Shown: positions 4,089-42,287 of the stretch, piece by piece | Position numbering within the stretch: the stretch's first letter is position 1 | Layout of the letters: each line of letters opens with the position of its first letter | Assembly: GCA_051715425.1 (NCBI GenBank) | Contig: JBPXJS010000041.1 | Location: 336,360 to 400,359 of the forward strand | Length of the DNA stretch: 64,000 nucleotides | Source: Bacteroidota bacterium | Lineage (GTDB): Bacteria > Bacteroidota > Bacteroidia > UKL13-3 | Direction: 5' to 3' | Program-made: the position numbers and the translations under genes | The notes under the pieces: model-generated | Told to the model about the DNA's origin: nothing | Databases searched by the model: none | The model's input: only the letters and a program-made list of their open reading frames with translations

Positions 4089-4089
4089 T

Positions 4090-4836: not shown

Positions 4837-4846
4837 TTCAAAAAAC

Positions 4847-6786: not shown

Positions 6787-6792
6787 TCAACC

Positions 6793-7728: not shown

Positions 7729-7735
7729 TCCAATA

Positions 7736-8758: not shown

Positions 8759-8760
8759 GA

Positions 8761-9723: not shown

Positions 9724-9732
9724 TATTTAATT

Positions 9733-14951: not shown

Positions 14952-14953
14952 CT

Positions 14954-25103: not shown

Positions 25104-25631
25104 ATGAATACAAAAGAATTAAACAAACCCATTTATCTCGAAATTCTTACTGATGCAAATTTTTCTAAGAATTACGTGAACTGGATGAATGATTATGAAA
25201 TCACAAAATACCTGGAAAGCAGGTGGAGAGGTCAAACCATTGACAGTATTAAAGAATACCTCAAATACATGAATGAGAGCCCAAACAATTTTATGTTCGG
25301 CATTTTCCTGTCATCAAACAACCAACATATTGGCAATATTAAAATAGGTAGTATTGACTGGATACACAGAAACGGTGATGTAGGCCTGTTGATTGGCGAA
25401 CGATCCACCTGGGGTAAGGGTTATGCTACTGAAGCCATCAAACAAATTACCCATATAGCTTTCAAAAATCTAAACCTGAACAAACTGCTTGCAGGTATTT
25501 ATGTTGGCAATGAAGGTTCTTACAAAGCATTTATAAAAGCAGGATGGGAGGATGTAGGTCTTCTCAAAAAACATCGCTTCTCTGAGGGGAAATTTGTTGA
25601 CGAATACCTGGTTGAGGTTATTACCAATTAA
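25104..25631 (+). CDS. GNAT-family N-acetyltransferase (RimL-like). Candidate PseH.
   Basis: 175 aa. Acetyl-CoA-binding region ERSTWGKGYATEAIKQI. Located inside the pse gene block. Confidence 0.55.
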   Translation: MNTKELNKPIYLEILTDANFSKNYVNWMNDYEITKYLESRWRGQTIDSIKEYLKYMNESPNNFMFGIFLSSNNQHIGNIKIGSIDWIHRNGDVGLLIGERSTWGKGYATEAIKQITHIAFKNLNLNKLLAGIYVGNEGSYKAFIKAGWEDVGLLKKHRFSEGKFVDEYLVEVITN

Positions 25632-25644
25632 TTCAGGAAATACC

Positions 25645-26676: not shown

Positions 26677-27962
26677 TGATATTTGACAGACAAAACAGTT
26701 GTAACAGAATGATGCGTTTTATAGAGGAAGTTTATCCTTTGCAGCGCATGATTAATTCTGAAGGACTTGACAGTGCTTTTGAGATCGTAAAACGAGAAAT
26801 TCCGGAAACCATTATACATGAATACCCTGCCGGAATGGAATGTGGAGACTGGATAGTACCTAAAGGATGGAAAGTAAAAGAAGCTTACCTGAAAAACAAA
26901 GCAGGTGATATTATTGCAGATTTTGCAGAACATCCGCTTTTTGTTGCCGCATACAGTGAACCGGTGAGCGGTTGGTTCACAAAATCTGAAATAGCCCGCC
27001 ATGTGCGTTGCCACCCAACCAAACCGGGAGCTTATTTTTTGGAGCATCGCAATGCCTACAATTATAAATTAACAGACTGGGGCATTACGCTTCCTAAAAA
27101 CACATGGGATAACCTGCCCGATGCAGAGTACCATGTTCATATTGATATAGAATGGAGCAACCGGAGTATGAAGGTTGCAGAAGTATTTGTTCAGGGTCAG
27201 TCAGATAAAATCATTTCTATTAGTGCGCATATTGACGAAATATGTAATGACAACCTGAGCGGATGCGCTGCCGGAATGGAAATGATCCGCTATATTCAGC
27301 AATTACCTTCTCCTAAATATTCCTATCAGTTGCTTTTGATACCGGAAACGATAGGTACCTTTTTTTATGTTTTTAATAACCTGCAGAGGGTAAAGAAAAC
27401 AATAGGCATGTATAACCTTGAAACTGTTGGCTCAGGTGAAAGTTGGGTATTAAAAAAAGCCCTTACACCAAACAGTTTAATTGAACAGGCTCTCCATTCA
27501 GCGCTTGTTAACACCGGTTTCCCTTATAAACATATTGATTTTTTTGAAGGATATGGGAATGATGAACGTGTGTACGAATGGCCTACGCTTAAAATTCCGG
27601 GTGTAGCACTTCAGCGTTATCCTTTTTACGAATACCATTCCGGAGATGATACCCCGGAGAATATTGATCAGGAGCATTTGTTTAATGCTGTTCAAATCTC
27701 GTGTAACCTCGTAGATGTTTTAGAAACCGATTATATTCCTGAATATACTCAGGTTATTCCACCATGGCTTACACGACACGATCTGTATTATGACAGCAGG
27801 GATAATACAGCCAACTTTCATAAGTTCAACAATCTCCTACTTTTTAATATTGATGGAACCAAATCCCTTTCGGAACTTTGCGGGATAGCCGGTATAAGAT
27901 TTACCGAGGCCTATGAATATCTGGAAAAATTTGTTGCCAAAGGTTTTATTATAAAAAAATAA
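26676..27962 (+). CDS. DUF4910 / aminopeptidase-like (M28 fold) protein with a C-terminal winged helix. Resembles the Campylobacter Cj1295 family implicated in non-acetyl acylation of pseudaminic acid.
   Basis: 428 aa. HIDIEWSN, SAHIDEICNDNLSGCAAGME and YEYHSGDDTPE are M28-like metal-site segments. Confidence 0.5.
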   Translation: MIFDRQNSCNRMMRFIEEVYPLQRMINSEGLDSAFEIVKREIPETIIHEYPAGMECGDWIVPKGWKVKEAYLKNKAGDIIADFAEHPLFVAAYSEPVSGWFTKSEIARHVRCHPTKPGAYFLEHRNAYNYKLTDWGITLPKNTWDNLPDAEYHVHIDIEWSNRSMKVAEVFVQGQSDKIISISAHIDEICNDNLSGCAAGMEMIRYIQQLPSPKYSYQLLLIPETIGTFFYVFNNLQRVKKTIGMYNLETVGSGESWVLKKALTPNSLIEQALHSALVNTGFPYKHIDFFEGYGNDERVYEWPTLKIPGVALQRYPFYEYHSGDDTPENIDQEHLFNAVQISCNLVDVLETDYIPEYTQVIPPWLTRHDLYYDSRDNTANFHKFNNLLLFNIDGTKSLSELCGIAGIRFTEAYEYLEKFVAKGFIIKK

Positions 27963-27975
27963 TTTTCATTGTTTT

Positions 27976-29436
27976 ATGCTTTTTAACTCATTCGAGTTTC
28001 TGCTCTTCTTTCCTCTTGTTACCCTGATTTACTTTTTGATCCCGCATCGTTTCAGGTGGTTTCATCTGTTGCTTGCGAGTTGTGTTTTTTATGCGGCCTT
28101 TATTCCGGCCTATATCCTTATTCTGTTTTTTACCATCATCATAGACTATGTGGCTGGTATCCTCATTGAAAAAACGGAAGGCCCAAAACGAAAATGGTAT
28201 CTTACCATGAGCATCATTGCCAATGTGGGTGTTCTTGCCATATTCAAATATTACAACTTCTTTATAGGGAACATCAACGATTTGTTGTTGCTTATTGGTA
28301 TTCATAGTAATCCACTCCCCTATCTTGGTATTATTCTGCCCATTGGTCTTTCCTTTCATACATTTCAGGCGATGAGTTATACCATTGAAGTGTATCGTAA
28401 AAATCAGCCGGCAGAAAAACATTTTGGCATTTATTCTCTTTATGTAATGTTCTATCCACAACTTGTTGCCGGACCTATTGAGAGGCCACAGAATGTGATT
28501 CATCAGTTCCACGAGGAGAAAAAATTCGATTACAGCCTTGCGGTCAAGGGAATGCGACTTATGCTTATCGGGATGTTTAAAAAAGTGGTTATTGCCGACA
28601 GGCTTGCCCTGTTTACCAGTCCTGTATTTAACGACCCCGACCAGTATTCTTCCGTTGTACTTTTTATTGGTGCTGTATTTTTTGCCTTTCAGATTTTCTG
28701 TGATTTTTCCGGGTACTCTGATATTGCTTTGGGATCAGCTCAGGTAATGGGAATAACCCTCATGAAAAACTTTGATAAGCCGTATCATTCTCAATCCATA
28801 TCAGAATTCTGGAGCCGCTGGCATATTTCTCTTAGCACATGGTTCAGGGATTATTTATATATTACTCTCGGTGGAAACAGGGTGTCGGTTCCAAGATGGT
28901 ACTTTAACCTGTTTTTTGTTTTTCTGGTTAGCGGTTTCTGGCACGGTGCCAACTGGACTTTTATCATATGGGGTATGTTACACGGATTCTACCTGATATT
29001 TGCATTAGCAACCTCCGGATTTAGAAAGTCGCTGGCTGCTGCAGTAAAACTGGATAAATTGCCCCGCATTCAATCCGTTTTAAATATACTTATCACATTT
29101 GTACTTGTAACCCTGGCCTGGATCTTTTTCAGGGCCAATACCGTAAAAGAAGCAATGTTCATCATCACTTCTGTGCTCCATATTCCGCTTGATATTTTAT
29201 CAGGATCTGCTAACCTGTTAAGCAAATTTCCTGTTACTGCCAATACCTTTCTCATCTCAGTAGCCATGATTATTCTCCTTGAAACATATCACACCTTACA
29301 TTCTAATGCAAAAATGATATCCCTGTTTTCAAAACCTAAATCTTACTTACGTTGGTCAGCATATTACATGCTTATAATAGGTTTGGTTTTTTTAGGAGTA
29401 TGGGGAGAACAACAATTTATTTATTTCCAGTTTTAA
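27976..29436 (+). CDS. MBOAT-family membrane-bound O-acyltransferase (AlgI/DltB-like).
   Basis: 486 aa, multi-TM. Conserved region FWSRWHISLSTWFRDYLYI with the catalytic His. Confidence 0.85.
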   Translation: MLFNSFEFLLFFPLVTLIYFLIPHRFRWFHLLLASCVFYAAFIPAYILILFFTIIIDYVAGILIEKTEGPKRKWYLTMSIIANVGVLAIFKYYNFFIGNINDLLLLIGIHSNPLPYLGIILPIGLSFHTFQAMSYTIEVYRKNQPAEKHFGIYSLYVMFYPQLVAGPIERPQNVIHQFHEEKKFDYSLAVKGMRLMLIGMFKKVVIADRLALFTSPVFNDPDQYSSVVLFIGAVFFAFQIFCDFSGYSDIALGSAQVMGITLMKNFDKPYHSQSISEFWSRWHISLSTWFRDYLYITLGGNRVSVPRWYFNLFFVFLVSGFWHGANWTFIIWGMLHGFYLIFALATSGFRKSLAAAVKLDKLPRIQSVLNILITFVLVTLAWIFFRANTVKEAMFIITSVLHIPLDILSGSANLLSKFPVTANTFLISVAMIILLETYHTLHSNAKMISLFSKPKSYLRWSAYYMLIIGLVFLGVWGEQQFIYFQF

Positions 29437-29437
29437 T

Positions 29438-30565
29438 ATGATTCGGTTTTTCAAGCGACTTTTCCTTTTTTCGGTTCCAATTATTGTTTTTTTCAGCGTT
29501 CCTCTGTTTGTTCTTTTTCCCTCAGGTGAACTTACCTCCAATACCACCATGCTTGAGGAGCATATAGAGAACAAACAATCCCTTATCGGCTTGGCATATA
29601 GTAATCCGGTAACTTTTCTTAAACTTCATGCGGCAAAACAGAAAACACCTGAAATTCTTGCTTTGGGTACCTCGAGAATAATGCAGGTACGAGACTTTTT
29701 CTTTAAAAATTCTTCATCATTCTACAATGCAGGTGGAGGAATTTTCAGAATAAATTACCTGCGCTATTTTACTTCAGAAGTAATTAAGTCAGCGAAACCA
29801 CGTATGATCATCGTTTGCCTTGATCAGAATTTTTTTAACCCTAACTGGGATAACCTGAGCAAAACGAAATTTGACGATGAATACAAGGATGAATACAACG
29901 CGTTGTCTTATATTTTTAATAATGCAACCACCTGCTGGCATGATGCTTTTGAGGGAAAAGTTCCTGCGGATTATTGTTTAAATCTAAAACCCGGACAAAT
30001 TGGTTTAACTGCCGCAGTAAAGAAAAATGGGTTCCGGAGTGACGGAAGTTATTATTCAGGACAGATAAAAAGTCATCCGGAAGAAGATCAGGATTATCAG
30101 TTCAAAAACACCCTTGATAGAATTGCTAAAGCAACCAAACGATTCGAATATGCCCAACAAATTAACAGCAGAGCAGTAAATGAGCTGGACTCTTTCCTTA
30201 CTTTTTGCAAAGTCAACAATATTCATGTAGTAAGTTTTCTCCCTCCTTATGCAAATAAAATATTATCAGTTATGCGTTCAAAAGGTAACGACTATGCGTA
30301 TCTGGATAAGATCATGCCCGCTTTAAAACCGGTATTTGAAAAACACAGGTTAAACGTATTTGATTTTACAGATCTTTCCACCATTCAGGCAGGAGATGAA
30401 GAAGTGCTTGACGGATTCCACGGATCTGAAAAAATATACCTGAGGATGATGATTCAAATGGCGAATAAAGATAGTATACTGGCAAAATCTTGTGATGTAC
30501 CTGCACTTCAGCATTTGCTCAACCAATCCTATTCCCACCAATTTATACATAACGAAACTTACTAA
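29438..30565 (+). CDS. Putative MBOAT partner protein (AlgJ/DltD-like, N-terminal signal anchor, SGNH-like).
   Basis: Starts immediately after the MBOAT gene. N-terminal TM helix. ALGTSRIMQ motif. The call is by position and architecture only. Confidence 0.35.
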   Translation: MIRFFKRLFLFSVPIIVFFSVPLFVLFPSGELTSNTTMLEEHIENKQSLIGLAYSNPVTFLKLHAAKQKTPEILALGTSRIMQVRDFFFKNSSSFYNAGGGIFRINYLRYFTSEVIKSAKPRMIIVCLDQNFFNPNWDNLSKTKFDDEYKDEYNALSYIFNNATTCWHDAFEGKVPADYCLNLKPGQIGLTAAVKKNGFRSDGSYYSGQIKSHPEEDQDYQFKNTLDRIAKATKRFEYAQQINSRAVNELDSFLTFCKVNNIHVVSFLPPYANKILSVMRSKGNDYAYLDKIMPALKPVFEKHRLNVFDFTDLSTIQAGDEEVLDGFHGSEKIYLRMMIQMANKDSILAKSCDVPALQHLLNQSYSHQFIHNETY

Positions 30566-30567
30566 CT

Positions 30568-32157
30568 GTGAACGCCCTTTTCCTGAAATTCGCAAAAGAC
30601 CCAAGCAAAAGAATTGTAAAACGTATTATAGAAGATTTACATATCAATCATGTGCATGTTATTTCTACAAGCACGGGGCATTTTAGTGAATCTGAACAAA
30701 AAACATTTACAAAGGGTACCAAATTTACCCAACTCTCTGCAGAGGAGCATTATTTTGGTGTTTATGAACATGTAAACTGGAATGAACTGGAGCCAGTTGA
30801 CAAAAGCCTGCTTGATAAGTTTGAAAAACATTACTTCAACCTGTTTGCCGTTTTTGATAAAGACTATCTGCCTTACAATTTTGAAGACCAATACTCTTAT
30901 CCTAAACATATTATTGAGCCTATACTTAAACATCAGTTTAATAAGTATGCGGTAAACAGGATATACAGCTATGATCATTTTGACAAGATCAGAATGATGC
31001 ACCGACATATCAGATTCTGGTATAACTATATCAAACGTGAAAAGATTGAAGCTGCCTTTTTTACCCTATGCCCGCACTTTCCTTTTGAGTATATTATTTA
31101 CGCGCTTTGTAAGGAAATGAATATTCCTACGGCCATGTCGTATTTTTCCAGCCCTCCAGGTTACTCACTGGTATTTAAAGATATTGATGATCCTTATGCA
31201 TATACTCATAAGAAATTTCTTGAACTATCCGCAGATGTAAACCTTCAAACTTCTATTAAACTAAATGATGACTTTGAGGCTGAATGGAATGCAAAAACCA
31301 GAGATATGGAAAAGCCCTGGTATTTTGATACAAAACTAATGGCAAAATTCGATCAGGAGGGTAGATTTAAACATGAAGAAAATTCAAGGGTAAATGAGTG
31401 GAAGAGGCAACGTCCAATTTCTTTTAAAGAGAAAATTTGGAGTAAAGTGAAACGCAGATTTGATATAGATTATATCTATTTCAAAATGAAATTTGGAAAA
31501 GTTCCATACTGGAAAAAGTTATACAATTATTATCAGTCTATAACTGAAACACCAGACTTTAATAAGCCCTACATCTATCTGCCGCTTGCCTACCAGCCTG
31601 AATTATCAACCATGCCGCTGGGAGGTTACTATTTCTATCAAACTACCCTGATTGATATGATTTCCCATTATTTACCGGAAGGTTGGTTTATTTATGTAAA
31701 GGAGCATATTATGCCAAGCAAGAGAATGAGGAGCGTTCAATTCTATCAGGATTTGAAAAACAATCCGAAGGTAAAACTCATCAGCAAGGATGTAGATTCC
31801 ATGAAACTTGCCGAACACGCAAAGGCTGTCGCCACCATTACAGGAACACCAGGCTGGGAAGGACTTTTCCGGGGCAAACCATGTCTGCTCTTCGGACATA
31901 TCTTTTACGAATACGCCCCGGGAGTTTTCAGAATCAGAACAAATGAAGATTGCCGGATGGCTATCAAGAAAATCGAAGAAGGCTTTACTACATCAACTGA
32001 TGACTTAATGATATTTATGAAAGCATTACAACTAACCAATATCAGAGCCGCTATGGAGCATGCCACACTCGATTTTAAAGGATACGATCTGGATGAAAAT
32101 GCTGAGATTTTCGGTAAAGAATATGTTCGGGTAATTAAAGAGCAATTAAAATCATAA
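30568..32157 (+). CDS. Capsule_synth-family (KpsS/KpsC-like, GT107-type) glycosyltransferase candidate.
   Basis: YIYLPLAYQPELSTMPLGG ... FIYVKEHIMPS resembles the KpsS core LQVYNDSQ ... YLVIKHHPMD. Confidence 0.45.
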   Translation: MNALFLKFAKDPSKRIVKRIIEDLHINHVHVISTSTGHFSESEQKTFTKGTKFTQLSAEEHYFGVYEHVNWNELEPVDKSLLDKFEKHYFNLFAVFDKDYLPYNFEDQYSYPKHIIEPILKHQFNKYAVNRIYSYDHFDKIRMMHRHIRFWYNYIKREKIEAAFFTLCPHFPFEYIIYALCKEMNIPTAMSYFSSPPGYSLVFKDIDDPYAYTHKKFLELSADVNLQTSIKLNDDFEAEWNAKTRDMEKPWYFDTKLMAKFDQEGRFKHEENSRVNEWKRQRPISFKEKIWSKVKRRFDIDYIYFKMKFGKVPYWKKLYNYYQSITETPDFNKPYIYLPLAYQPELSTMPLGGYYFYQTTLIDMISHYLPEGWFIYVKEHIMPSKRMRSVQFYQDLKNNPKVKLISKDVDSMKLAEHAKAVATITGTPGWEGLFRGKPCLLFGHIFYEYAPGVFRIRTNEDCRMAIKKIEEGFTTSTDDLMIFMKALQLTNIRAAMEHATLDFKGYDLDENAEIFGKEYVRVIKEQLKS

Positions 32158-32161
32158 GAGG

Positions 32162-33355
32162 ATGAAAAAATATAGTGATATATCCGTTGGCGACTCAGCC
32201 GAAATAAAGCACACCATAACCGATCATGATATACGCAAGTTTGTTGACCTGACAGGTGATGACAACAAACTTCATATTGATTCCGGTTTTGCAGCCAACA
32301 CCTCATTTAAAAAGCCTGTTGCACACGGTATGCTGGGTGCCTCTTTCATCTCCACTATTATAGGCACAAAATTACCTGGCGATGGTGCATTATGGTTTTC
32401 GCAAAGTTTAGAATTTTTGATGCCTGTAAGGGTTGGCGATACATTAACCATTACTGCAGAAGTAACAGGGAAAAATGACAGAAATAACAGTATAGAGTTA
32501 AGAACCGATATATATAATCAGAACAAACAAAAAGTAACCTCCGGCACCGCTAAGGTAAAAATAGTAGAACAGGAACTGCCTTCTGAAAAAAATCAGGAAG
32601 AATTAAGCTCAGGCATTAAAAACATACTTATAATTGGCGCATCCGGAGGCATCGGACAAGCCATCAGTAAAAAACTTAGTCAGGAGGGTTATAACCTGAT
32701 TCTCCACTATAACAACAACCCGGGCAAGGTGGAACAAATTGCAGCTACAAAAGTTAACGACAATCAAAAAATTGCCTGTGTTAAGGCTGATTTAAGTATA
32801 GACAGCGAGCTTGACGGGTTAATCTCCAAAGCAGAAAGAACACTTGGTTCTGTTGATGGTATCATTAATGCGGCAACTGTAAATGTTTCAAACATTAAAT
32901 TTGAGAAAACAGACTGGAACGACCTGAACAGGCATCTTCAGATAAACATTAAAGCCAATTACGAATTGTTGAAAAGGCTGGTTCCTTCTATGAAACAGCG
33001 GAAACAAGGGAAGATCATTTTTATAACCACCCAATATACAGAGAGCACTCCTCCTGCAGAGCTTATTCATTATGTAACAGCAAAATCCGCCCTAAATGGT
33101 TTTGCCAAATCTATGGCTGTAGAGCTGGGTCCTCACAATATCCAGGTTAATCTTGTTTCTCCGGGTATGACTGAAACTGAACTGATTGCTGATGTTCCTG
33201 AAAAAGCCAGACTCGTAGCCGCAGGTAAAACCCCGCTGCGAAGACTTGCTACTCCTCTGGATATAGCAAATGTGGTATCCTTTTTATTTTCCGAAAACAG
33301 CAATTATATAACAGGTGAAACCATTCGTGTGAATGGCGGACAAACCATGATATAA
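32162..33355 (+). CDS. Fusion of a MaoC-like (hot-dog fold) dehydratase and a short-chain dehydrogenase/reductase (FabG-like).
   Basis: N-terminus FVDLTGDDNKLHID and VAHGML (MaoC). C-terminus ILIIGASGGIGQAI and YVTAKSALNG (SDR Y-x3-K). Confidence 0.75.
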   Translation: MKKYSDISVGDSAEIKHTITDHDIRKFVDLTGDDNKLHIDSGFAANTSFKKPVAHGMLGASFISTIIGTKLPGDGALWFSQSLEFLMPVRVGDTLTITAEVTGKNDRNNSIELRTDIYNQNKQKVTSGTAKVKIVEQELPSEKNQEELSSGIKNILIIGASGGIGQAISKKLSQEGYNLILHYNNNPGKVEQIAATKVNDNQKIACVKADLSIDSELDGLISKAERTLGSVDGIINAATVNVSNIKFEKTDWNDLNRHLQINIKANYELLKRLVPSMKQRKQGKIIFITTQYTESTPPAELIHYVTAKSALNGFAKSMAVELGPHNIQVNLVSPGMTETELIADVPEKARLVAAGKTPLRRLATPLDIANVVSFLFSENSNYITGETIRVNGGQTMI

Positions 33356-35109
33356 TGGAATTGATAAAATACACAGACCTCTTAAAAGAAAACAAAATCC
33401 TGAAAGACAAACTTGCAGGAAAACCTCAGGTAAAAATTCACCTGTTGAATAATGTTACAGTGAATATCCTGAAAAATGTACTTGAATACAGGTTACGTTT
33501 GTCCGGCAACAATGTTGAAATGGTGATGCATGATTATGACACCATTATCCCGGACAGTATGCAACTTCAGGATGAGAATACTCCCAGAATCATATTTTGG
33601 GATATTTGCAATTATTTACCCGGTATTTATTACAAAAGCAATCTGTGGTCAAATAAGGAACTCGATGACTTTATCTCTAAAGTAAGAAATGATATTGATT
33701 TGGTGTTTCAATCTCTTTCCAAAGCAAGCATTGCATTTGTTAATACCTTTAGTGCATCGCCCTTTGCCCTGCATGCAGTAAAACAGACACCATTGCAGGT
33801 GGCCGCTGAGGTATTGAATAAATACCTCATTGACAGAAAACCGGAAAATGTTCATCTGGTTGATATGTCGGTCATTTATCAGGAAATATCTGTGAGCATA
33901 GCGACAGATCTGAGAATGTTTAATAACAGCAAAACGTTACACAGTTATCCGTTTTTCTATGCGTATGTTAACCGCATCATGCCCGTGCTGTCATCAGTAA
34001 CCGGGAAAGCCAAAAAGGCATTGATATTTGATTGTGATAATTCCTTATGGCACGGGATTATCGGTGAAGACGGGAAAGAAGGAATTAAAATGTCTGCAGA
34101 AGACAGCAAAGGCATTTTTTTTCATCAGGTTCAACGTATTGCTGTGGAGTTAAGTAAACAAGGAATCATTATTGGCTTAAACAGTAAAAACAACCCGGAA
34201 GATGTGGAGGATATCCTTCAATCGCATCCGGATATGTTCTTAAGAGATGAGCATATTGTAATAAAAAAAGTAAACTGGATCGATAAAGCATCAAATCTTA
34301 AGCAGATAGCCAAAGACCTGAATATTGGTATTGACAGTCTTGTTTTTATAGATGATTCTGATTTTGAAATCAATTTAGTAAGAGAACAACTGCCCGAGGT
34401 TTCCACATTTCAGGTTCCCAAGGCCCTGCATGATTACCCAAAGATGATGAAAGAAATTTCCAACCTCTTTTATAATCACTCACAAACAGGTGAAGATCTG
34501 GAAAGGGTGAACATGTATAAACAAGAACAGGCACGGGAACAACAAAAAGAAACATTCGGTAATATTGATGAGTACCTTCATTCACTTGGCATAAAAATAA
34601 AAATATATAAAGACGATGTATCATTGGTTGCCAGAACCGCACAAATGACACAAAAGACCAATCAGTTTAATCTCACCACCAAACGATACACTGAAAACGA
34701 TATTCAGCATTTTATCACATCTGCATCACATCATGTGTATGTATTTGAGGTTAGTGATAAATTTGGGTCGTATGGAATAACCGGCATGTGCATTACAAAT
34801 GCTGAAAACAATAACGTTTTGATTGATTCCTTTTTGATGAGCTGCCGGGTATTGGGAAGAAAAATAGAATCAAGTTTTCTTTCATACATCATTGATGATT
34901 TGGTAAAAGAAGGAGTTAAGTCTATGCTCTCCTCATATATCAAAACTGCAAAAAATGCTCAGGTTGAAATGTTTTTTGAAAACAATGGGTTCAGCCTCAC
35001 TGAATCATCAGAGGGTGCTAAGAACTATACCCTCAACACAATAGATTGGAAAAACCACACTCCTGATTTTATCACTATTGAAAACGCTGATAACATTAAA
35101 ACTGCATAA
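33355..35109 (+). CDS. FkbH-like HAD-superfamily subfamily IIIC phosphatase/acyltransferase with a C-terminal GNAT-like domain.
   Basis: KALIFDCDNSLWHGIIGEDG is the hallmark FkbH/HAD-IIIC motif I. Further HAD motifs VFIDDS and GLNSKNN. The C-terminal ~150 aa is GNAT-like. Confidence 0.75.
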   Translation: MELIKYTDLLKENKILKDKLAGKPQVKIHLLNNVTVNILKNVLEYRLRLSGNNVEMVMHDYDTIIPDSMQLQDENTPRIIFWDICNYLPGIYYKSNLWSNKELDDFISKVRNDIDLVFQSLSKASIAFVNTFSASPFALHAVKQTPLQVAAEVLNKYLIDRKPENVHLVDMSVIYQEISVSIATDLRMFNNSKTLHSYPFFYAYVNRIMPVLSSVTGKAKKALIFDCDNSLWHGIIGEDGKEGIKMSAEDSKGIFFHQVQRIAVELSKQGIIIGLNSKNNPEDVEDILQSHPDMFLRDEHIVIKKVNWIDKASNLKQIAKDLNIGIDSLVFIDDSDFEINLVREQLPEVSTFQVPKALHDYPKMMKEISNLFYNHSQTGEDLERVNMYKQEQAREQQKETFGNIDEYLHSLGIKIKIYKDDVSLVARTAQMTQKTNQFNLTTKRYTENDIQHFITSASHHVYVFEVSDKFGSYGITGMCITNAENNNVLIDSFLMSCRVLGRKIESSFLSYIIDDLVKEGVKSMLSSYIKTAKNAQVEMFFENNGFSLTESSEGAKNYTLNTIDWKNHTPDFITIENADNIKTA

Positions 35110-35111
35110 AA

Positions 35112-36524
35112 TTGAATAATTCCCGGGATTACTTATCGTACTTACTTCGTATAGAAAAACTTATTTCCGATAAACACCGGCATATTTTCAGCGCACTGTT
35201 TATACAATTCTATCTCTATCTAACAGGAAGTGTACATTCGAAGAAAACCCCAAAAAGAAATATCACCTTTTACCTAGCCAAGTTTTTGAGATTTATCCAA
35301 CTCACATTGTTAAATCTTAAATCAGCAAACGCGGATATAGTGGTATGGATAGCAGACAAATCGCATATTAACGAGGTTTCTGCTGTTTGTGTGAACCTAA
35401 TGGGCAATGGAAAAAAAGTATTAATTGTTTCAGCAAAAAATGATTTGCTCAAAAATCCTGCACTTCAACCCTTTCAAAGGTTATTCATTCCAATTCCTTT
35501 CACCAAACCAATGCCAGAATCAGAAGTTGATGAATTTGTTAAGGCATTTACAAGTGCTGAAGTATTGACCGGTGAGCTAAAGCTGAATGAGACCGAAATG
35601 AACCTTTTTAAACAATGCCTGACAGACTGGGGAAATAATACAAAAAGGCTAGGTGAAATTTTAAATCAACTCCTCAAAAGGATCAAGCCGGAAGCTGCCA
35701 TAATTGGTTATGATATCCCACCTGATGGAAGAACCTTTACCCTGGTATGTAAAGAAAATAATATTAAAACATTTATGATCCAGCATGGTTCAGTTGCTGT
35801 TAAAAATGGCATATTCAGCGGACATAAAGTTGACCATTACATGGTTTATGGAGAACTCACAAAATCTATTTTAAAAGATGTAAATTGTGAATCAGAAATA
35901 TATGTAGCCGGCCCGCCCTATTTAGACCATATAAAGACAAAGAAAAAAGCCGATATCCGGCAACAAACCAGCAGAAAAAAAAGAATTCTAGTAGCCTTTT
36001 CAGGACCGGGGCATTTTACCACATTGGAACATCACCAATTATCTATCAAGGTTCTGATTACTTTAGTTAAGCAAATGCCTGATACAGAATTCTTCCTTAA
36101 ACTTCACCCCAAAGACAGTTTAACATACTATACCGATCTGTTATCTTATTCTAATGTTTTTGATAAACTCCCAAACAACAATAGCACTGATATTTTCGAT
36201 TGGCTTGCCCATAGTGACCTTTTGATTACAGGAGCTTCTACTGTGTGCCAGGAGGCAATGATTATAAATATTCCGGCCATTTGCCTCGACCTCTTAAACC
36301 ACTACTCCAGCGTGGAGTTTATAAAAGATAAAGCGGTGTATTACAATACCTCTGAAACTCAATTAAGCGATACCATTAATAACCTATTTAATGGTATTGA
36401 GGATTTACAAATAAAACAAAATGCCATAGGGCATGTGGAACATTTTTTTGGCAGGCTTGATGGAAAAGCGTCAACCCGTTGTGCCGACTATATACTCAAA
36501 CAATTAGACAGAAATGGAAAATAA
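35112..36524 (+). CDS. TagF/KpsS-like GT-B fold transferase (Glyphos_transf / Capsule_synth superfamily), hypothetical.
   Basis: FMIQHGS, FFLKLHPKD (conserved K-x-HP) and LLITGAST. Confidence 0.35.
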   Translation: MNNSRDYLSYLLRIEKLISDKHRHIFSALFIQFYLYLTGSVHSKKTPKRNITFYLAKFLRFIQLTLLNLKSANADIVVWIADKSHINEVSAVCVNLMGNGKKVLIVSAKNDLLKNPALQPFQRLFIPIPFTKPMPESEVDEFVKAFTSAEVLTGELKLNETEMNLFKQCLTDWGNNTKRLGEILNQLLKRIKPEAAIIGYDIPPDGRTFTLVCKENNIKTFMIQHGSVAVKNGIFSGHKVDHYMVYGELTKSILKDVNCESEIYVAGPPYLDHIKTKKKADIRQQTSRKKRILVAFSGPGHFTTLEHHQLSIKVLITLVKQMPDTEFFLKLHPKDSLTYYTDLLSYSNVFDKLPNNNSTDIFDWLAHSDLLITGASTVCQEAMIINIPAICLDLLNHYSSVEFIKDKAVYYNTSETQLSDTINNLFNGIEDLQIKQNAIGHVEHFFGRLDGKASTRCADYILKQLDRNGK

Positions 36525-36741
36525 AGTAAAGGAAATAATGGCTGCTGTTTTCGAAACAGAGCCATCATTAATTAATGAAAACAGCAGTCCCGATAATATC
36601 GAGAACTGGGATTCTATCAGACATATGAATCTGATTGTTGCCCTTGAGGAGGAATTCGGAATCCAGTTTAATGATGACCAGATTGCCGACATGACCAACT
36701 TTAAGCTGGTAATTGCTACCCTAAAAGAATTTAGTTTATAG
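36514..36741 (+). CDS. Acyl carrier protein (phosphopantetheine attachment site).
   Basis: 75 aa, acidic. WDSIRHMNLIVALEEEFGIQF has the Ser (DSI) attachment motif and helix II. Confidence 0.75.
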   Translation: MENKVKEIMAAVFETEPSLINENSSPDNIENWDSIRHMNLIVALEEEFGIQFNDDQIADMTNFKLVIATLKEFSL

Positions 36742-36745
36742 GTTT

Positions 36746-37309
36746 ATGCTTAAAGCAATTGGCTACTTCCATGCGATTCTTAATTATGCTTATAAATATT
36801 ATTTGCAGATTAAGCACTACCCAAAATTAAAGATAGAGGGTCGCCCCTTGATTGGAAAAAGGGTTCGGTTTATTCTGGCAACAGGTTCCAAAACCACTAT
36901 TGGAAAAGGGGTAATGATTTCTGATGATGTGATTATCCAGGCATGGGCTGGAGCACAAATAACTATTGGAAAGAAATGCTTCTTTAACAGAACAGTATCG
37001 CTTATTGTTCATGAGAAACTGGAAATAGGCAACGAAGTAATGCTTGGAGAAAATGTGAAAGTTTATGACAATGAACATGTGATAAACGGGAATAAGGTGG
37101 AGCGAAAATTGTTTAATACGGCTCCTGTTGTTATCCGTGATAATTGCTGGATTGCCAACAGTGCGGTTGTATTGAAAGGAACAACCATGGGGCCAAATAC
37201 ACTAGTTGCAGCATTAACAATGGCCTCCGGCAATCTGGAAGCCAACGCCATGTATATGGGTGTACCATGCAGAAAATTAAAAAAACTGGAAACGGAGGAA
37301 TCAAAATAA
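36746..37309 (+). CDS. Left-handed beta-helix (hexapeptide repeat) acetyltransferase (WbbJ/PglD/LegH-like).
   Basis: Repeating [LIV]-G-x4 hexapeptides: IGKGVMISDDVII, IGNEVMLGENVKV, IRDNCWIANSAVV. Confidence 0.75.
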   Translation: MLKAIGYFHAILNYAYKYYLQIKHYPKLKIEGRPLIGKRVRFILATGSKTTIGKGVMISDDVIIQAWAGAQITIGKKCFFNRTVSLIVHEKLEIGNEVMLGENVKVYDNEHVINGNKVERKLFNTAPVVIRDNCWIANSAVVLKGTTMGPNTLVAALTMASGNLEANAMYMGVPCRKLKKLETEESK

Positions 37310-39163
37310 ATGTGTGGAATTGCCGGTATAATCGGAAATAACGCTTCAGAAAAAAGCATTGATGAGATGCTTAAGGCTACCAGGCACAGGGGGCCGGATG
37401 ATTATGGCATAGCCTCCTTTGAAGGCGCTGCTATCGGCATGAACCGCCTGGCCATCATTGATCTTTCTGCACTTGCTCATCAGCCCATGCTAAGCAAGGA
37501 TGGAAGATATGCCATTGTATATAACGGAGAAATATATAACTACCTGGAAATTAGAAAAGAACTCGAAAAACAAGGTGAGTTCTTTTTATCCAACTCTGAT
37601 ACCGAGGTTCTTTTAAGGGCTTTCCTTGTTTACGGTAAGGCTTGCCTTTCAAAAATACGGGGCATGTTTGCCTTTGTGATCTGGGATAAAGAAACACAAA
37701 CAGCTTTTGGAGCCAGAGATCACCTCGGCATAAAACCATTTATTTATAGTGTAAGGGATAATAACCTGATTTTTTGTTCAGAATTAAAAGGTTTTCTTGC
37801 CCTAAACAGCTACAACTGGATTCCCGATGACTACTCCGTGTCAGAGTATCTGATGCGTGGATACATTACAGCTCCATCCACCATACTCAAGGATATTTAC
37901 TCCTTGCTTCCGGGAAACTGTTTTGAGTTCAAAAATGGGGAATTAACTATTTCGACATACTGGGACTTAAAAGAAAACGAGCTACCGGCTCTGCCTGAGA
38001 AAGAAATGCTAAGCACCATCAAACAACATGTACTTGATGCGGTTAAAGAACAACAGGTTTCTGATGTTCCGTTGGGAGTATTTCTTAGCGGTGGGCTCGA
38101 TTCTTCCATAGTAGTGTCTGCCATGAGAGAATCCGGTATAAAAAAGATAAAAACGTTCTCCATAGGTTTGCAAAATGATTCAACTGAGCTTGATGAATCA
38201 TCTGATGCCCGCATTACTTCAGCCTTCTTTCAAACGGATCATTATGAGTTTATGCTAACGGGTGAAGAAATAACATCAAAATTTCATCATTATTATAAAA
38301 TGCTGGATCAGCCATCCGTTGATGGTTTAAACACCTATCTGGTAAGCGAAATGGCGAGAAAGGAGGTTACTGTGGCATTGTCAGGATTAGGAGGAGATGA
38401 GTTATTTGGAGGATATAGCTGGCAAACCAAACCATACCTTACATCGGCTTATAAAAAAACTGCGGCAAACATACTAAACCCAATAAAAAACTTTCTTCCA
38501 GGCTCACTTTCAAATAAAGTTAAAAGTACCTTACTGATGAATGATATGCATGATTATTACAAAAACCTGCATACAACTTTTTCAGAAAATGAGTGGGACA
38601 CCGTGCCCAATTCACCCATTAAAAAAGAATCTATTTTAGATAAAGTACTTTCTGCATACCAGCTTAAAGTGGCAGATAAAATGAGGCAGATTACGTATTA
38701 TGACATGAAAGTTTTTATGGCTTCGCGGTTATTAAGAGATAATGATGCGGTAGCAATGGGGCATTCCCTTGAAGTACGTTTTCCATTTATTGATTACCGG
38801 CTGTGTGAGTTTGCATGGAATATTAAAACAGAACAGAAAAGAAACGGATTTTCTGCCGACCCGGGATATGGAAATGGAACAAAAAAACTGCTCTATGAAG
38901 CGTTCAGGAATCAGCTCCCTCCTGATATTGCAAAGAGAACAAAGAAAGGATTTAAATTGCCTTATCAACTTTGGTTTAAAACTACACTGAAGAATGAAGT
39001 AGATCTAATCTGGACAAGCCCGTACCTGAGCAAATATATCAGGAAAGAAAAACTTGTTGAGATAAAACAAGGTTGGGAAAACGGGAAGGTGAACTGGGTA
39101 ATTATTCTTCAACTATTAACCCTTGACGGATGGTTCCGTCATGTTTATGAGCGCACCCCTTAA
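37310..39163 (+). CDS. Asparagine synthetase B-family glutamine-dependent amidotransferase (PseA/WbpS-like).
   Basis: MCGIAGI N-terminal nucleophile Cys. PP-loop FLSGGLDSS. 617 aa. Confidence 0.85.
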   Translation: MCGIAGIIGNNASEKSIDEMLKATRHRGPDDYGIASFEGAAIGMNRLAIIDLSALAHQPMLSKDGRYAIVYNGEIYNYLEIRKELEKQGEFFLSNSDTEVLLRAFLVYGKACLSKIRGMFAFVIWDKETQTAFGARDHLGIKPFIYSVRDNNLIFCSELKGFLALNSYNWIPDDYSVSEYLMRGYITAPSTILKDIYSLLPGNCFEFKNGELTISTYWDLKENELPALPEKEMLSTIKQHVLDAVKEQQVSDVPLGVFLSGGLDSSIVVSAMRESGIKKIKTFSIGLQNDSTELDESSDARITSAFFQTDHYEFMLTGEEITSKFHHYYKMLDQPSVDGLNTYLVSEMARKEVTVALSGLGGDELFGGYSWQTKPYLTSAYKKTAANILNPIKNFLPGSLSNKVKSTLLMNDMHDYYKNLHTTFSENEWDTVPNSPIKKESILDKVLSAYQLKVADKMRQITYYDMKVFMASRLLRDNDAVAMGHSLEVRFPFIDYRLCEFAWNIKTEQKRNGFSADPGYGNGTKKLLYEAFRNQLPPDIAKRTKKGFKLPYQLWFKTTLKNEVDLIWTSPYLSKYIRKEKLVEIKQGWENGKVNWVIILQLLTLDGWFRHVYERTP

Positions 39164-40349
39164 TATCGTATACATTCATCAGGATGGTCATATAACCGGA
39201 TCTGCTATCAGCTTAAAAAATCTGATCAGCGGATTTTTACCGGGTCAGGTAAATCCAACACTAATCATTCCAACTGAAGGGCCTTTGAGAGCTTTTATGG
39301 AAGAAGCGGGCATTCAGGTGATTTGTGCTCCCTTTCAATCATTTTGGACCTTTCCTGGTCCGAGGTGGTTTTCGAGAAATAATTTTAAGATGTACAAGGC
39401 TCTGATACCCGACAAGAAACTTTTGAAGTTGATAAGGGATCTTAAACCGGATATTATTCATATTAATGATAAAGCTGCAATGGCTGCCGGTATTTCCCTC
39501 AGAAAGTCTGGTATTCCTATTATACAACACCTGAGAAGCAACTTTCATAAAACTAAATTCAGGTTTAATAAATGGTTATCTGTATGGCTTACTAAAAGAT
39601 ATGCTGATTTATTCATCGCTATTTCAGAAGATGAAACGGATGGTTTTGATCGTGTATCCAACCTTCATATCATTTACAATACCATACATCCCTCCCTCTC
39701 TGCAAAAGCTCTTGCCAATAAGAAAAATATCCGTGAAGAGTTTAATATCCGTTCAGAAGATGTGGTTGTTTGTTATGTGGGCCTTTACAACGAATTAAAA
39801 GGTGCATGGGATTATATAGATACATGTGGTCGATTAAAGAAAAAACTGCCCCACAAAAAATTCCATTTCTTTTTCATTGGTCCCATTCCCTCACCGGATG
39901 TTAAACTAAATGAACATGGCACCCTTATCAACCCATACGATAAGGCAAAAAAACTTGCTGATGAAGCAGGAATAAGAGAAGAGATGATATTCACCGGATA
40001 CAGAAAAGATGCCCTGAGCCTGATTGCTGCTTCTGATCTGCTGTTGATTATGAATAAGCAGGGCGTGCTGGGCCGTCAACCCTTTGAAGCCATGTCGGTA
40101 GGTGTTCCTGTAATTGCAGTTGCAGGGCAAAGCAGCAAAACCAATATAGTTCGTTCAGGGGTAAATGGTATTCTTCTTAAAGAATATTCACCGGGGCTTA
40201 TTGCAGAAGAAGCTGCCCGTATGCTCTCTGACCGGAACTATTGCCATCAACTTGGCAATGCAGGCAAAGAAATAGCTGACACTGAATTTAACCCACTGAT
40301 TAACTCACAGAAGGTAATCAAACTTTACCACAGCCTCATAAAAAATTGA
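39147..40349 (+). CDS. GT4-family (GT-B) glycosyltransferase.
   Basis: The C-terminal GQPFEAMSVGVPVIAV matches the GT4 E-x7-E region. Start is uncertain (39123, 39141 or 39147) and overlaps the asnB-like stop. Confidence 0.7.
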   Translation: MSAPLNIVYIHQDGHITGSAISLKNLISGFLPGQVNPTLIIPTEGPLRAFMEEAGIQVICAPFQSFWTFPGPRWFSRNNFKMYKALIPDKKLLKLIRDLKPDIIHINDKAAMAAGISLRKSGIPIIQHLRSNFHKTKFRFNKWLSVWLTKRYADLFIAISEDETDGFDRVSNLHIIYNTIHPSLSAKALANKKNIREEFNIRSEDVVVCYVGLYNELKGAWDYIDTCGRLKKKLPHKKFHFFFIGPIPSPDVKLNEHGTLINPYDKAKKLADEAGIREEMIFTGYRKDALSLIAASDLLLIMNKQGVLGRQPFEAMSVGVPVIAVAGQSSKTNIVRSGVNGILLKEYSPGLIAEEAARMLSDRNYCHQLGNAGKEIADTEFNPLINSQKVIKLYHSLIKN

Positions 40350-41209
40350 AACCCGCCAACCCGTCTTTACAAATTGAAGGTCGCTCAGGATGTGAGCTCA
40401 AAATCATACAGCGTGATGGTGGTATATTTGTACGCAAATATTCCAGTAATGAATTGTATAACGAAAGGCTTGTTAAACAACAAGAGAAACAGGCCTCATT
40501 CAATGACCCAACATTAGTGCAATTCGGTTTTTCAACCCCCCAGGTCTTTCAAACCGGCAACGAGGGCAACCTGTTTTGGTTTGAGATGAATTATGTTGGT
40601 GGTGAAAAGTATTCCAACTACCTTCAAAGAATAAATAAACCGGAAATCGACCAACTGATTAACCGTTTTATTAAATACTTTGAGTTTCAGTTTGCCAAAG
40701 CGGAAACGATTGATGTACCCGTATTAATCATTCAGGATAAAATAAAATCCCTTGAAACTGCGGTAAATAATAACGCTGAAATAAATGCGGTACTGAGAGA
40801 AAAGCTCCTGTCTTATTTGCAAAAAAATATTCCTTCACATACAATCGGTATAGGGCAATGTCATGGAGACCTTACTCTCTCCAATATGCTTTTTCTCAAC
40901 AACGGACATATCGTTACCTTTGATCTTCTTGATTCCTTTATTGAATCACCTGTTATTGATTTTGTGAAACTCAGACAGGATACCCGATACGGCTGGTCCA
41001 TTTTTATTGAGGATATTGACACCAATACAAGGCTTAAGCAGGTATTACGTTACCTGGATAATGCGCTGGTTGAATATGCTCAAAGCAAATCCGATCTTAT
41101 TCACTGGGAGCATTATCTTACGGTGTTTAACTTTGCCAGAATATTGCCTTACGCAAAAGACCTCAGGGATTTACATTTTATAGAAAACAAATTGAATAAC
41201 TTAATATAA
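40346..41209 (+). CDS. Aminoglycoside-phosphotransferase-fold kinase (choline/ethanolamine kinase or anomeric sugar kinase, LicA/NahK/AmgK-like).
   Basis: Catalytic loop GQCHGDLTLSNMLF (H-G-D-x4-N), followed by the IVTFDLLDS metal-binding Asp. Confidence 0.7.
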   Translation: MKPANPSLQIEGRSGCELKIIQRDGGIFVRKYSSNELYNERLVKQQEKQASFNDPTLVQFGFSTPQVFQTGNEGNLFWFEMNYVGGEKYSNYLQRINKPEIDQLINRFIKYFEFQFAKAETIDVPVLIIQDKIKSLETAVNNNAEINAVLREKLLSYLQKNIPSHTIGIGQCHGDLTLSNMLFLNNGHIVTFDLLDSFIESPVIDFVKLRQDTRYGWSIFIEDIDTNTRLKQVLRYLDNALVEYAQSKSDLIHWEHYLTVFNFARILPYAKDLRDLHFIENKLNNLI

Positions 41210-41210
41210 T

Positions 41211-42287
41211 ATGATACTTATTGTACCTATGGCTGGCCGATCGAGCCGCTTTCCAAATATGAAACCCAAGTGGATGCTAACACACCCCAGCGGGCGTTTT
41301 ATGGTAATTGAAGCTATTAACGGGCTGAACCTTTCAGACTTTAGCAAAATTGTTTTTGTTTGCCTGAAAGAGCATGAAGAATTACACGGATTTACCAAAG
41401 GGTTCAGGGAAGAGCTTGAATCTTTAGGAATAAATGATAAAAGCGAAATATTATACCTTGAAACTACGACAAGACACCAATCTGAAACCGTGGCCAAGGC
41501 GATTGAACACTACCATATAACGGGTCCAGTGTTTGTTAAAGATTCGGATAATTATTTCACAGTTAGGTATACTGGAAATAATACCGTTTGTTTTTACGAC
41601 CTTAATTCATCGGGGTTAATAAAGCCTAAAAACAAAAGTTACATTTCATTTGATGAACATGGTTATATCAACAATATTGTAGAAAAGCAGGTAATCAGTT
41701 CGAGTTTCTGCGTTGGAGGTTATGGATTTGCCTCAGCAGGTGAGTTTATTTCCTATATGAATAAGATTGACAATGAAGGAGAGGTATACCTTAGCAATGT
41801 GATCTTTGAAATGATTCTTGACGGTAAGAAATTCAGCAGTACCATAGTAGATCATTACAAGGATTGGGGAACCCTTGAAGATTGGGATCGGTTCAAGCGT
41901 TCGTATGCCACCTTGTTTTTGGATATTGACGGCACTTTGGTGAAAAACTCCTCAGCTCATTTTCCTCCTTATATTGGGAATACACCAGCCCTGACCGAGA
42001 ATATAGAGATCATTAAAAAGCTGTATGAGAGCGGTAAATTTCAGGTGATACTTACTACATCACGTCCGGAGAAATACAGAAAGGAAACCGTAAACCAAAT
42101 GGAAAAAGAAGGCATTCCTTTCAACCACCTCATCATGGGGCTTTATCACGCTAAGAGAATTATTATAAATGATTACAGCAAATCAAATCCGTACAAAAGC
42201 TGTGACGCCATCAACCTGAAAAGGGATGCACAGGATCTTAAAGAGATATTAAGGGAATCATTGGGAATTGATTACGAAGAAATTTAA
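41211..42287 (+). CDS. Fusion of an N-terminal sugar-phosphate / phospho-alcohol nucleotidyltransferase (LicC/MurU-like) and a C-terminal HAD-family phosphatase.
   Basis: N-terminus ILIVPMAGRSSRF (G-x-G-x-R NT motif). C-terminus LFLDIDGTLVKNS (HAD DxDxT) and ILTTSRPE. Confidence 0.65.
   Translation: MILIVPMAGRSSRFPNMKPKWMLTHPSGRFMVIEAINGLNLSDFSKIVFVCLKEHEELHGFTKGFREELESLGINDKSEILYLETTTRHQSETVAKAIEHYHITGPVFVKDSDNYFTVRYTGNNTVCFYDLNSSGLIKPKNKSYISFDEHGYINNIVEKQVISSSFCVGGYGFASAGEFISYMNKIDNEGEVYLSNVIFEMILDGKKFSSTIVDHYKDWGTLEDWDRFKRSYATLFLDIDGTLVKNSSAHFPPYIGNTPALTENIEIIKKLYESGKFQVILTTSRPEKYRKETVNQMEKEGIPFNHLIMGLYHAKRIIINDYSKSNPYKSCDAINLKRDAQDLKEILRESLGIDYEEI

Follow-up and report, generated by a model that had tools for sequence, protein, structure and literature searches.

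Which acyl group is made, and which sugar receives it, when genes for an acyl-loading enzyme, an acyl carrier protein (ACP) and a dehydratase-reductase fusion occur together in the middle of a polysaccharide locus? The question is raised by a stretch of 64,000 nucleotides from Bacteroidota bacterium (lineage UKL13-3; GenBank assembly GCA_051715425.1, contig JBPXJS010000041.1, forward-strand positions 336,360 to 400,359), hereafter called the window. A first-pass annotation had proposed an ACP-dependent cassette that builds a glyceroyl or 3-hydroxyacyl substituent for transfer to an amino sugar, and all the open reading frames (ORFs) named there were recovered at their positions on the plus strand, to which all coordinates below refer. 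In agreement with that proposal, the cassette combines a true FkbH-domain loader with an ACP of its own and a MaoC-SDR fusion for tailoring. The balance tilts slightly towards a module that builds a C3 hydroxyacyl thioester to decorate a sugar of this polysaccharide. The FkbH-like protein and the ACP are predicted with high confidence to build a glycerate-derived acyl-ACP. With about even confidence, the product would be lactyl-ACP (2-hydroxypropanoyl-ACP), which is favoured by analogy over the glyceroyl or 3-hydroxyacyl forms.

The FkbH-like, MaoC-SDR and carrier protein genes

The FkbH-like gene (33355-35109) encodes a loader of 584 residues with three domains: an N-terminal SGNH-like domain (residues 1-218), apparently non-catalytic, a HAD-IIIC phosphatase (about 219-370) and a C-terminal GNAT fold (about 400-578). 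The protein passes the cut-offs of two hidden Markov models (HMMs), with 280.2 bits to TIGR01686 (cut-off 146.65; residues 219-548, profile positions 2-321 of 323) and 58.5 bits to the HAD-IIIC model TIGR01681 (cut-off 35.75), and has zero Pfam matches. The motif DCDNSLWHG occupies residues 226-234. An alignment of 16 homologues with 43-84% identity showed the HAD catalytic Asp pair D226/D228 intact and invariant, together with K278-N-N, D333-D334, TQKTNQFN and S496-C497-R498..G501-R502, and S277 conserved in at least 90%. The GNAT-like domain reported earlier was also recovered, with its invariant cysteine. This residue, C497, within S-C-R-x-x-G-R, occupies the beta4/alpha3 position within the GNAT fold and is a candidate for the equivalent of the FkbH catalytic Cys. 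The FkbH-like protein has more than 6400 homologues.

The fusion gene (32162-33355, 397 residues) joins in a single ORF an R-hydratase-type hot-dog dehydratase of the MaoC family (residues 1-145) and a FabG-like SDR ketoreductase (residues 153-397), as had been described, and its catalytic residues are intact. Searches with Pfam and NCBIfam placed both parts, the Pfam matches being MaoC_dehydratas (69.9 bits, residues 14-115) and adh_short_C2 (169.5 bits, residues 159-395). The closest PDB entries were FabG 4jro (121 bits) and the (R)-specific enoyl-CoA hydratase 5cpg (101 bits). The dehydratase part possesses the hydratase-2 motif G32-D33-D-N35-K-L-H38, with D33, N35 and H38 at least 95% conserved among 38 fusions. 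The SDR part carries the cofactor motif G159-A-S-G-G-I-G (TGxxxGxG), and the glycine motif, Y304 and K308 are conserved in the same set. Since all FabG equivalog scores fall below their cut-offs, the SDR part is not a housekeeping FabG. Comparison with polyketide synthase (PKS)-type domains gave 43 bits for the ketoreductase (KR) model PF08659 and 33 bits for the fatty acid synthase FAS1 dehydratase (DH) region, and the best matches were the MaoC and FabG types. At least 2809 fusion homologues were found (E <= 1e-20 among 8000 candidates scored); the 120 best listed are mostly 55-60% identical to the window protein and carry only the names 'SDR family oxidoreductase' or '3-oxoacyl-ACP reductase'.

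The dedicated ACP (36514-36741, 75 residues) starts 1.4 kb downstream of the FkbH-like gene. It passes PF00550 (24.3 bits, cut-off 20.8) and possesses the expected DSI site, D33-S34-I35 within NWDSI, with S34 as the phosphopantetheine serine. Among 54 cassette ACPs the W-D-S columns are the best conserved, at about 90-100%, and the start at 36514 is supported because the ACP consensus is conserved from residue 1. The ACP scores under the cut-off of every housekeeping AcpP equivalog.

The cassette genes are tightly packed and translationally coupled; the stop codon of the fusion overlaps the FkbH-like start (TAATG), and a promoter and terminator scan gave no signal above chance inside the cassette. 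The same set of genes was found far beyond this contig. All window proteins were used to search 83 loci, namely 80 loci with FkbH-like relatives from species-representative genomes plus L001, L002 and L003, where L001 is the contig of the window itself. Of the 83 loci, 77 have an ACP alongside the FkbH gene and 57 have the MaoC-SDR fusion, which in most of these 57 directly precedes FkbH; the canonical order is MaoC-SDR, FkbH, ACP. These loci belong to Bacteroidota, Gamma-, Beta- and Alphaproteobacteria, Campylobacterota, Actinomycetota, Myxococcota, Omnitrophota, Prochlorococcus (Cyanobacteria) and archaea. Approached from the fusion, the four contexts sampled (Leptospira ryugenii, Ca. Marinarcus aquaticus, Marinomonas colpomeniae and Pedobacter sp.) all consist of the fusion, an FkbH-like protein of about 570 residues and an ACP of about 74 residues. 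The HMM scores and the cross-phylum synteny are far beyond chance. The window and its closest relatives, L002 (84% identity) and L004 (66%), differ from the canonical cassette solely by a glycosyltransferase inserted between FkbH and ACP. The relatives of the window itself were found only in metagenomes and metagenome-assembled genomes.

Product of the cassette and acceptor of the acyl group

FkbH-family enzymes of polyketide pathways load the glyceryl unit of 1,3-bisphosphoglycerate onto a dedicated ACP. Judging from family membership and motifs, the HAD domain of the FkbH-like enzyme (D226/D228) would dephosphorylate 1,3-bisphosphoglycerate, and the GNAT-fold domain would pass the glyceryl unit, probably through C497, to the phosphopantetheine arm on S34 of the ACP. 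By analogy with the dehydratase-ketoreductase (DH-KR) proteins of FR901464 and lankacidin biosynthesis, the MaoC domain may then eliminate the 3-hydroxyl of glyceryl-ACP, leaving pyruvoyl-ACP in its enol form; reduction of the 2-keto group by the FabG-like SDR may follow and yield lactyl-ACP.

Lactyl is preferred to glyceroyl because the fusion behaves as an obligate partner located upstream of FkbH-ACP, ketosynthase-free loci included, and because the domain order matches that of the DH-KR-FkbH-ACP systems making lactyl-ACP from glyceryl-ACP. The fusion occurs without a FabH-like gene in 36 loci, and therefore its substrate must come from FkbH/ACP. A 3-hydroxyacyl product was judged unlikely because the window contains no condensing enzyme: no FabH, thiolase or clear AMP-ligase homologue was detected among its scanned ORFs. 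A methyltransferase was likewise absent from these ORFs, and the window cassette is a minimal version. Given the coupled fusion, the DH-KR-like order and the absence of a condensing enzyme from the window, the glyceroyl or 3-hydroxyacyl product proposed in the first-pass annotation is replaced here by lactyl as the more likely one.

Neighbouring ORFs of the related loci were clustered and representatives scanned with Pfam. The recurrent partners include SAM methyltransferases (33 loci), DegT aminotransferases (32), AMP-ligases (24), RmlB-like dehydratases (20), FabH-like KAS III proteins (20), PseH-like GNATs of the Acetyltransf_3 family (19), hexapeptide acyltransferases (12, touching the cassette in 10), MBL-fold proteins (11), VOC/glyoxalase-like proteins (9) and FdtA isomerases (9). 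The VOC protein, whose best family match is methylmalonyl-CoA epimerase (58 bits, below cut-off), lies directly upstream of FkbH, in the slot of the fusion, in L007, L017, L022, L027, L047, L062, L065 and L076. The two genes nearly exclude each other (both in 2 loci, fusion only in 51, VOC only in 7, neither in 21; Fisher p = 0.007). Both are enzymes acting at the alpha-carbon of acyl thioesters and share one slot, as expected if both tailor glyceryl-ACP. A possible function of the VOC protein is C2 epimerization of glyceryl-ACP, and cj1301 of Campylobacter jejuni may be its counterpart.

Had the methyltransferase and MaoC-SDR excluded each other, as was first expected, methylglyceroyl types could have been told apart from lactyl types; 20 loci have both, and the expectation failed.

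An extended cassette, with the order (FdtA)-second ACP-SDR-MBL-fold-FabH-like KAS III-(methyltransferase)-MaoC-SDR-FkbH-ACP-AMP-ligase-GNAT-DegT, was seen in L009, L014, L018, L022, L023, L034, L045, L055, L063 and L086, taking up about 5-13 kb per locus. Its probable product is an amino sugar that bears a longer, condensed acyl chain.

The cassette of the window lies between two putative nonulosonic-acid transferases, and for this reason the modified sugar is most likely a pseudaminic acid (Pse) residue; we infer that a nonulosonic acid is the most likely acyl target. The first-pass annotation had also reported flanking transferase-like genes, and both were found. Upstream, a Capsule_synth/KpsC-like protein (30568-32157; PF05159 31.9 bits, weak KpsC match in PDB), syntenic in L002 and L004, is a probable ulosonic or nonulosonic acid transferase. 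Between FkbH and ACP, a BFO_1060-like GT-B glycosyltransferase (35112-36524), an insertion that among the loci is confined to L001-L004, is a probable nonulosonic-acid transferase. It scored 66.8 bits to NF046086 (below the cut-off of 200) and 50 bits to TIGR04396, and the PDB sequence search gave no match for it. The BFO_1060 family includes experimentally supported transferases of Pse and legionaminic acid (Leg) derivatives from Tannerella forsythia (PMC5420450).

The Pse pathway itself is predicted to be encoded in the locus. PseB (506 bits, equivalog cut-off 408), PseC (467, 424), PseG (164, 154) and PseI (481, 340) all pass, the best window score to the PseH model is 39.7 bits (cut-off 93), and PseF is represented in the window only by CTP_transf_3 ORFs. 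The earlier placement of the cassette in a nonulosonic-acid locus thus stands for the window through PseB, PseC, PseG and PseI; as a property of the family it does not, for nonulosonic-acid genes occur in only about 15 of the 83 related loci. RmlB, FdtA or DegT genes, of the kind that typifies dTDP-3/4-amino-6-deoxyhexoses, are found in many other loci, and the cassette is not confined to nonulosonic-acid loci.

For the transfer step, gene neighbourhood points to two candidates. The acyl group may be moved to a sugar, most likely as an ester, by the left-handed beta-helix (LbH, hexapeptide) acyltransferase encoded at 36746-37309, directly after the ACP. This protein has a Hexapep match, its best matches are WcaF, WbbJ, LacA and Maa, and its closest PDB entry is maltose O-acetyltransferase. 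Its closeness to maltose/galactoside O-acetyltransferases and to WcaF/WbbJ points to an ester. The N-acyl transfer suggested earlier is only putative; the acyltransferase adjoining the ACP resembles O-acetyltransferases. Alternatively, a PseH-like GNAT (25104-25631; PF13302 72.7 bits, PseH model TIGR03585 39.7 bits) is a candidate acyl-ACP-using N-acyltransferase, which may form an amide on a Pse amino group freed by a PIG-L or a Cj1295-like protein. GNAT homologues stand beside MaoC-SDR/FkbH/ACP in L005, L007, L010, L015, L020, L036, L048, L054, L084 and L085. The PIG-L family de-N-acetylase (24380-25093; PF02585 74 bits) is a candidate for stripping Pse or a precursor of an N-acetyl group so that re-acylation can follow; in L004, L005, L048 and L054 PIG-L is found together with the FkbH cassette and Pse genes. 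A DUF4910/DUF2172/M28 aminopeptidase-like protein (26676-27962; Pfam, PDB 3k9t) follows a formyltransferase-like ORF (25594-26676), one ORF beyond the GNAT, and is a possible alternative de-N-acylase. On the shared domain annotation it is probably of the Cj1295 type.

Two related loci combine these elements. In L054 (Myxococcota), a complete Pse operon has the order PseB-PseC-...-MaoC/SDR-FkbH-ACP-GNAT-PseF-...-PseG::GNAT-PIG-L-PseI; its PseG::GNAT fusion is the canonical PseH function, and the arrangement suggests a route of deacetylation followed by re-acylation. In L085, the order is NeuB...GNAT-MaoC/SDR-FkbH-ACP-MT...HisH-HisF.

That the Maa/LacA-like hexapeptide transferase esterifies a sugar hydroxyl with the acyl group, whatever its structure, and that no amide is formed on a nonulosonic acid, is possible, if on the unlikely side. 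It is consistent with the position of the LbH gene directly after the ACP in the window and in L002, L004, L012, L013, L087 and L089, with the O-acetyltransferase likeness of its product, and with the cassettes of Pedobacter and Marinomonas, which have no aminotransferase within the 8 kb shown per side. Nevertheless, polysaccharide loci commonly contain LbH genes, whose products could use acetyl-CoA, and the PseH-like GNAT, found in 19 loci, is a more frequent neighbour. Besides the window, L002 and L004, LbH genes touch the cassette in L012, L013, L016, L031, L065, L074, L087 and L089, but those beside different cassettes are only 20-27% identical to the LbH of the window.

It is clearly improbable that unmodified glyceroyl (2,3-dihydroxypropanoyl) is placed on a Pse amino group, as in Pse5Am7Gra, with the fusion inactive on the intermediate or serving another pathway. 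N-glyceroyl and di-O-methylglyceroyl Pse are documented, glyceryl-ACP is the product of the FkbH family, and WbuX, HisH and HisF (acetimidoyl) in the same locus match the pattern of Am plus Gra. The fusion, however, is translationally coupled to FkbH, has conserved catalytic residues and is an obligate neighbour of FkbH-ACP, and the loci that resemble the dimethylglyceroyl type of C. jejuni have the VOC epimerase-like gene, not the fusion, in the slot.

The fusion might also make an (R)-3-hydroxybutyryl thioester from the crotonyl- or acetoacetyl-CoA of primary metabolism, for the 3-hydroxybutanoyl N-acyl group of Pse or Leg, while FkbH and ACP have a separate function. Such nonulosonic acids are well known, the MaoC part resembles PhaJ-type (R)-hydratases, and the SDR part resembles FabG and acetoacetyl-CoA reductases. 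This explanation is very improbable, as it leaves unexplained the near-constant adjacency of fusion and FkbH-ACP, often with overlapping stop and start codons, and the window has no ketosynthase or thiolase. Least probable of all is a Dlt-like system, in which the DltB-like MBOAT (27976-29436), together with the partner encoded after it, would draw on the acyl-ACP to O-acylate the polymer outside the cytoplasmic membrane: DltB does use a carrier-protein-bound acyl donor and the DltB model gives this MBOAT 154 bits, but this is far under the cut-off of 375, the MBOAT is apart from the cassette in the 84%-identical relative, and the hypothesis was rejected because homologues of this MBOAT occur in only 2 of the 83 FkbH loci, one of them L001.

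Several points weigh against lactyl-ACP as the product, or against its transfer to a nonulosonic acid. The lactyl chemistry is an analogy, because the MaoC- and FabG-type domains differ from the PKS-type DH and KR of the precedent. The methyltransferase that accompanies the fusion in 20 loci fits a 2-O-methyl-lactyl group and other products equally, and in the extended cassettes, with FabH, second SDR, second ACP and AMP-ligase, the fusion could process a condensation product. No phosphopantetheinyl transferase was detected among the scanned ORFs of at least 100 residues in the window. Confidence in the acceptor and the linkage is lower than in the product: as evidence on these, the LbH is closest to O-acetyltransferases, the LbH proteins beside other cassettes are the divergent ones described above, and the PseH-like GNAT directly follows PIG-L but lies 8 kb from the cassette. 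The T. forsythia workers reported that their genomes held no identifiable modifying enzyme, and N-glyceroyl Pse may therefore arise differently there. Finally, searches of the open-access literature yielded no biochemical description of any glycan-locus FkbH homologue.

The polysaccharide locus around the cassette

The array is a surface-polysaccharide locus of the Bacteroidota type. It is operon-like, extends over about 62 kb on the plus strand from an UpxY-type NusG gene (687-1193) to an initiating sugar transferase (62645-63232), and has a G+C content of about 38%, with the cassette in its middle. It also encodes a Wzx flippase (10425-11870), a Wzy-like polymerase (45820-47091) and many glycosyltransferases. 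Besides the Pse genes, the locus possesses the amidino genes WbuX and of the HisH and HisF types, and two further NeuB homologues.

The three NeuB-family synthase genes are located at 1916-2938, 14954-15934 and 23325-24383, and only the third is a PseI equivalog. The neighbours of the first, within 1916-10428, include a UDP-GlcNAc 2-epimerase, a formyltransferase-like ORF, a polysaccharide deacetylase, a D-2-hydroxyacid dehydrogenase, two GFO/IDH oxidoreductases and a cytidylyltransferase, and this stretch suggests a second, unusual nonulosonic-acid pathway. The second is the NeuB-like member of a block (14088-18017) with an aldo/keto reductase, CTP_transf_3 and a class-III aminotransferase, the last exceeding the cut-off of NF004856 'GSA aminomutase' with 533 bits. 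This block accompanies Pse genes in distant phyla (L004, L020, L054).

The set of N-acyl editing enzymes in the locus is unusually rich. Five formyltransferase-like ORFs are present (4817-5860, 21662-22291, 25594-26676, 49028-49825 and 57620-58372), some with the N- or C-terminal domain only, together with a carbamoyltransferase (49825-51636) and two polysaccharide deacetylases. The MBOAT gene is followed by an ORF of 375 residues, for which no Pfam, NCBIfam or PDB match was found; the pair spans 27976-30565 and probably forms a unit for O-acylation that works apart from the FkbH cassette.

Directly after the hexapeptide transferase lies an asparagine-synthase-type glutamine-dependent amidotransferase (37310-39163; TIGR01536 437 bits), which is syntenic in L002 and L004, is found near the cassette in L087 too, and possibly amidates the carboxyl group of a uronic or ulosonic acid. 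An APH-like kinase ORF and a 358-residue ORF with a weak C-terminal HAD match (40346-42287) follow downstream, and both are kept beside the cassette block in L002. Further downstream of this pair, a 486-residue protein with a GINT1_N domain (143 bits) is encoded at 43228-44688.

Comparison with known systems

Antigenicity, phage recognition and host interaction are all influenced by the non-acetyl acyl groups that pseudaminic and legionaminic acids carry. The cassette, if it acts as proposed, would explain the origin of some unusual acyl decorations on bacterial sialic-acid-like sugars. The window is not exceptional, because its cassette is one among thousands, and since thousands of genomes carry it, solving one member would re-annotate a very large family. 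This family is unnamed and biochemically untouched, and genome annotations call its members only 'HAD-IIIC family phosphatase', 'SDR family oxidoreductase' and 'acyl carrier protein'. With one member solved, glycan chemists could predict lactyl- and glyceroyl-type substituents from sequence. More tentatively, at a little under even confidence, we propose a cross-phylum glycan-lactylation module with sister versions in which a VOC epimerase and/or a methyltransferase replaces the fusion, drawing 1,3-bisphosphoglycerate off onto a carrier protein and supplying the lactyl, glyceroyl and O-methyl C3 decorations of surface sugars, including the groups of N-glyceroyl and dimethylglyceroyl Pse that have long lacked an explanation, in bacteria and archaea.

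The closest gene association known is that of C. jejuni. Strain NCTC 11168 has the fkbH-domain gene cj1302 in its flagellin glycosylation locus, beside cj1301, annotated as an epimerase, and C. jejuni Pse carries a 5-N-(2,3-di-O-methylglyceroyl) group. We take this locus also to contain a methyltransferase gene, fabH2 and two ACP genes. The window resembles the cj1295-cj1304 region in having an FkbH-domain gene in a Pse locus and a gene of putative Cj1295 type, with a glycerate-derived N-acyl group on the Pse of C. jejuni; it differs in that the gene preceding fkbH encodes the MaoC-SDR fusion and not an 'epimerase' like cj1301. Cj1295, an aminopeptidase-like polysaccharide biosynthesis protein (PIRSF015244) and the only accessory gene of Campylobacter tied to the modification, is required for di-O-methylglyceroyl-Pse, and Hitchen et al. 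proposed for it a route in which deacetylation is followed by re-acylation with the 5-N-(2,3-di-O-methylglyceroyl) group (PMC3068675). Two C. jejuni strains without cj1302 or cj1301 also lacked dimethylglyceroyl-Pse ions, a coincidence from which the authors drew no connection. In searches of the open-access literature, the only tie of FkbH to pseudaminic acid, polysaccharide or lipopolysaccharide to emerge was a passing mention of C. jejuni. The earlier statement that an FkbH-type route was undescribed for these sugars consequently holds for biochemistry and does not hold for gene association, for which cj1302 in the Pse locus of C. jejuni is a precedent.

The T. forsythia system (Pse5Am7Gra, Tanf_01245 of the BFO_1060 family) is similar to the window in being a Bacteroidota Pse locus with a BFO_1060-like transferase, which in the window lies inside the cassette. 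Its Pse bears a glycerate-type N-acyl group and an acetimidoyl group, and the window locus has the amidino genes WbuX, HisH and HisF. N-glyceroyl Pse is established in T. forsythia, and the modifying enzymes were called unknown in 2017 and, in the latest statement, in 2019.

Both candidate transferases have relatives of known function. The GNAT at 25104-25631 is similar to PseH, the N-acetyltransferase of UDP-4-amino-4,6-dideoxy-AltNAc, though its score is well below the cut-off of that model. For the LbH protein, LpxA and LpxD are a precedent as acyl-ACP-dependent LbH acyltransferases, but the window protein is closer to the acetyl-CoA-dependent Maa and LacA.

The polyketide systems provide the chemical precedent. 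The DH-KR bifunctional proteins of FR901464 and lankacidin biosynthesis convert glyceryl-S-ACP to lactyl-S-ACP, according to the account of He et al. 2014 given in PMC4765723. Like them, the window combines a dehydratase-ketoreductase pair with FkbH and ACP in the same order of functions; unlike them, its dehydratase is a MaoC/PhaJ-type single hot-dog and its reductase a FabG-type SDR, which makes the analogy a functional one only. The glyceryl-ACP loaders of the FkbH, OzmB and tetronate pathways (TIGR01686) share with the window protein the FkbH domain (HAD-IIIC plus a unique C-terminal part), the Asp pair and the dedicated ACP. In contrast to these loaders, the window protein is free-standing in a polysaccharide locus without a PKS, has an extra N-terminal SGNH-like domain of about 218 residues, and presumably serves to acylate a sugar and not to supply a PKS starter or extender unit. 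Judged by its sequence, the cassette is thus a free-standing glycan-locus version of the polyketide FkbH/ACP (+DH/KR) starter-unit chemistry.

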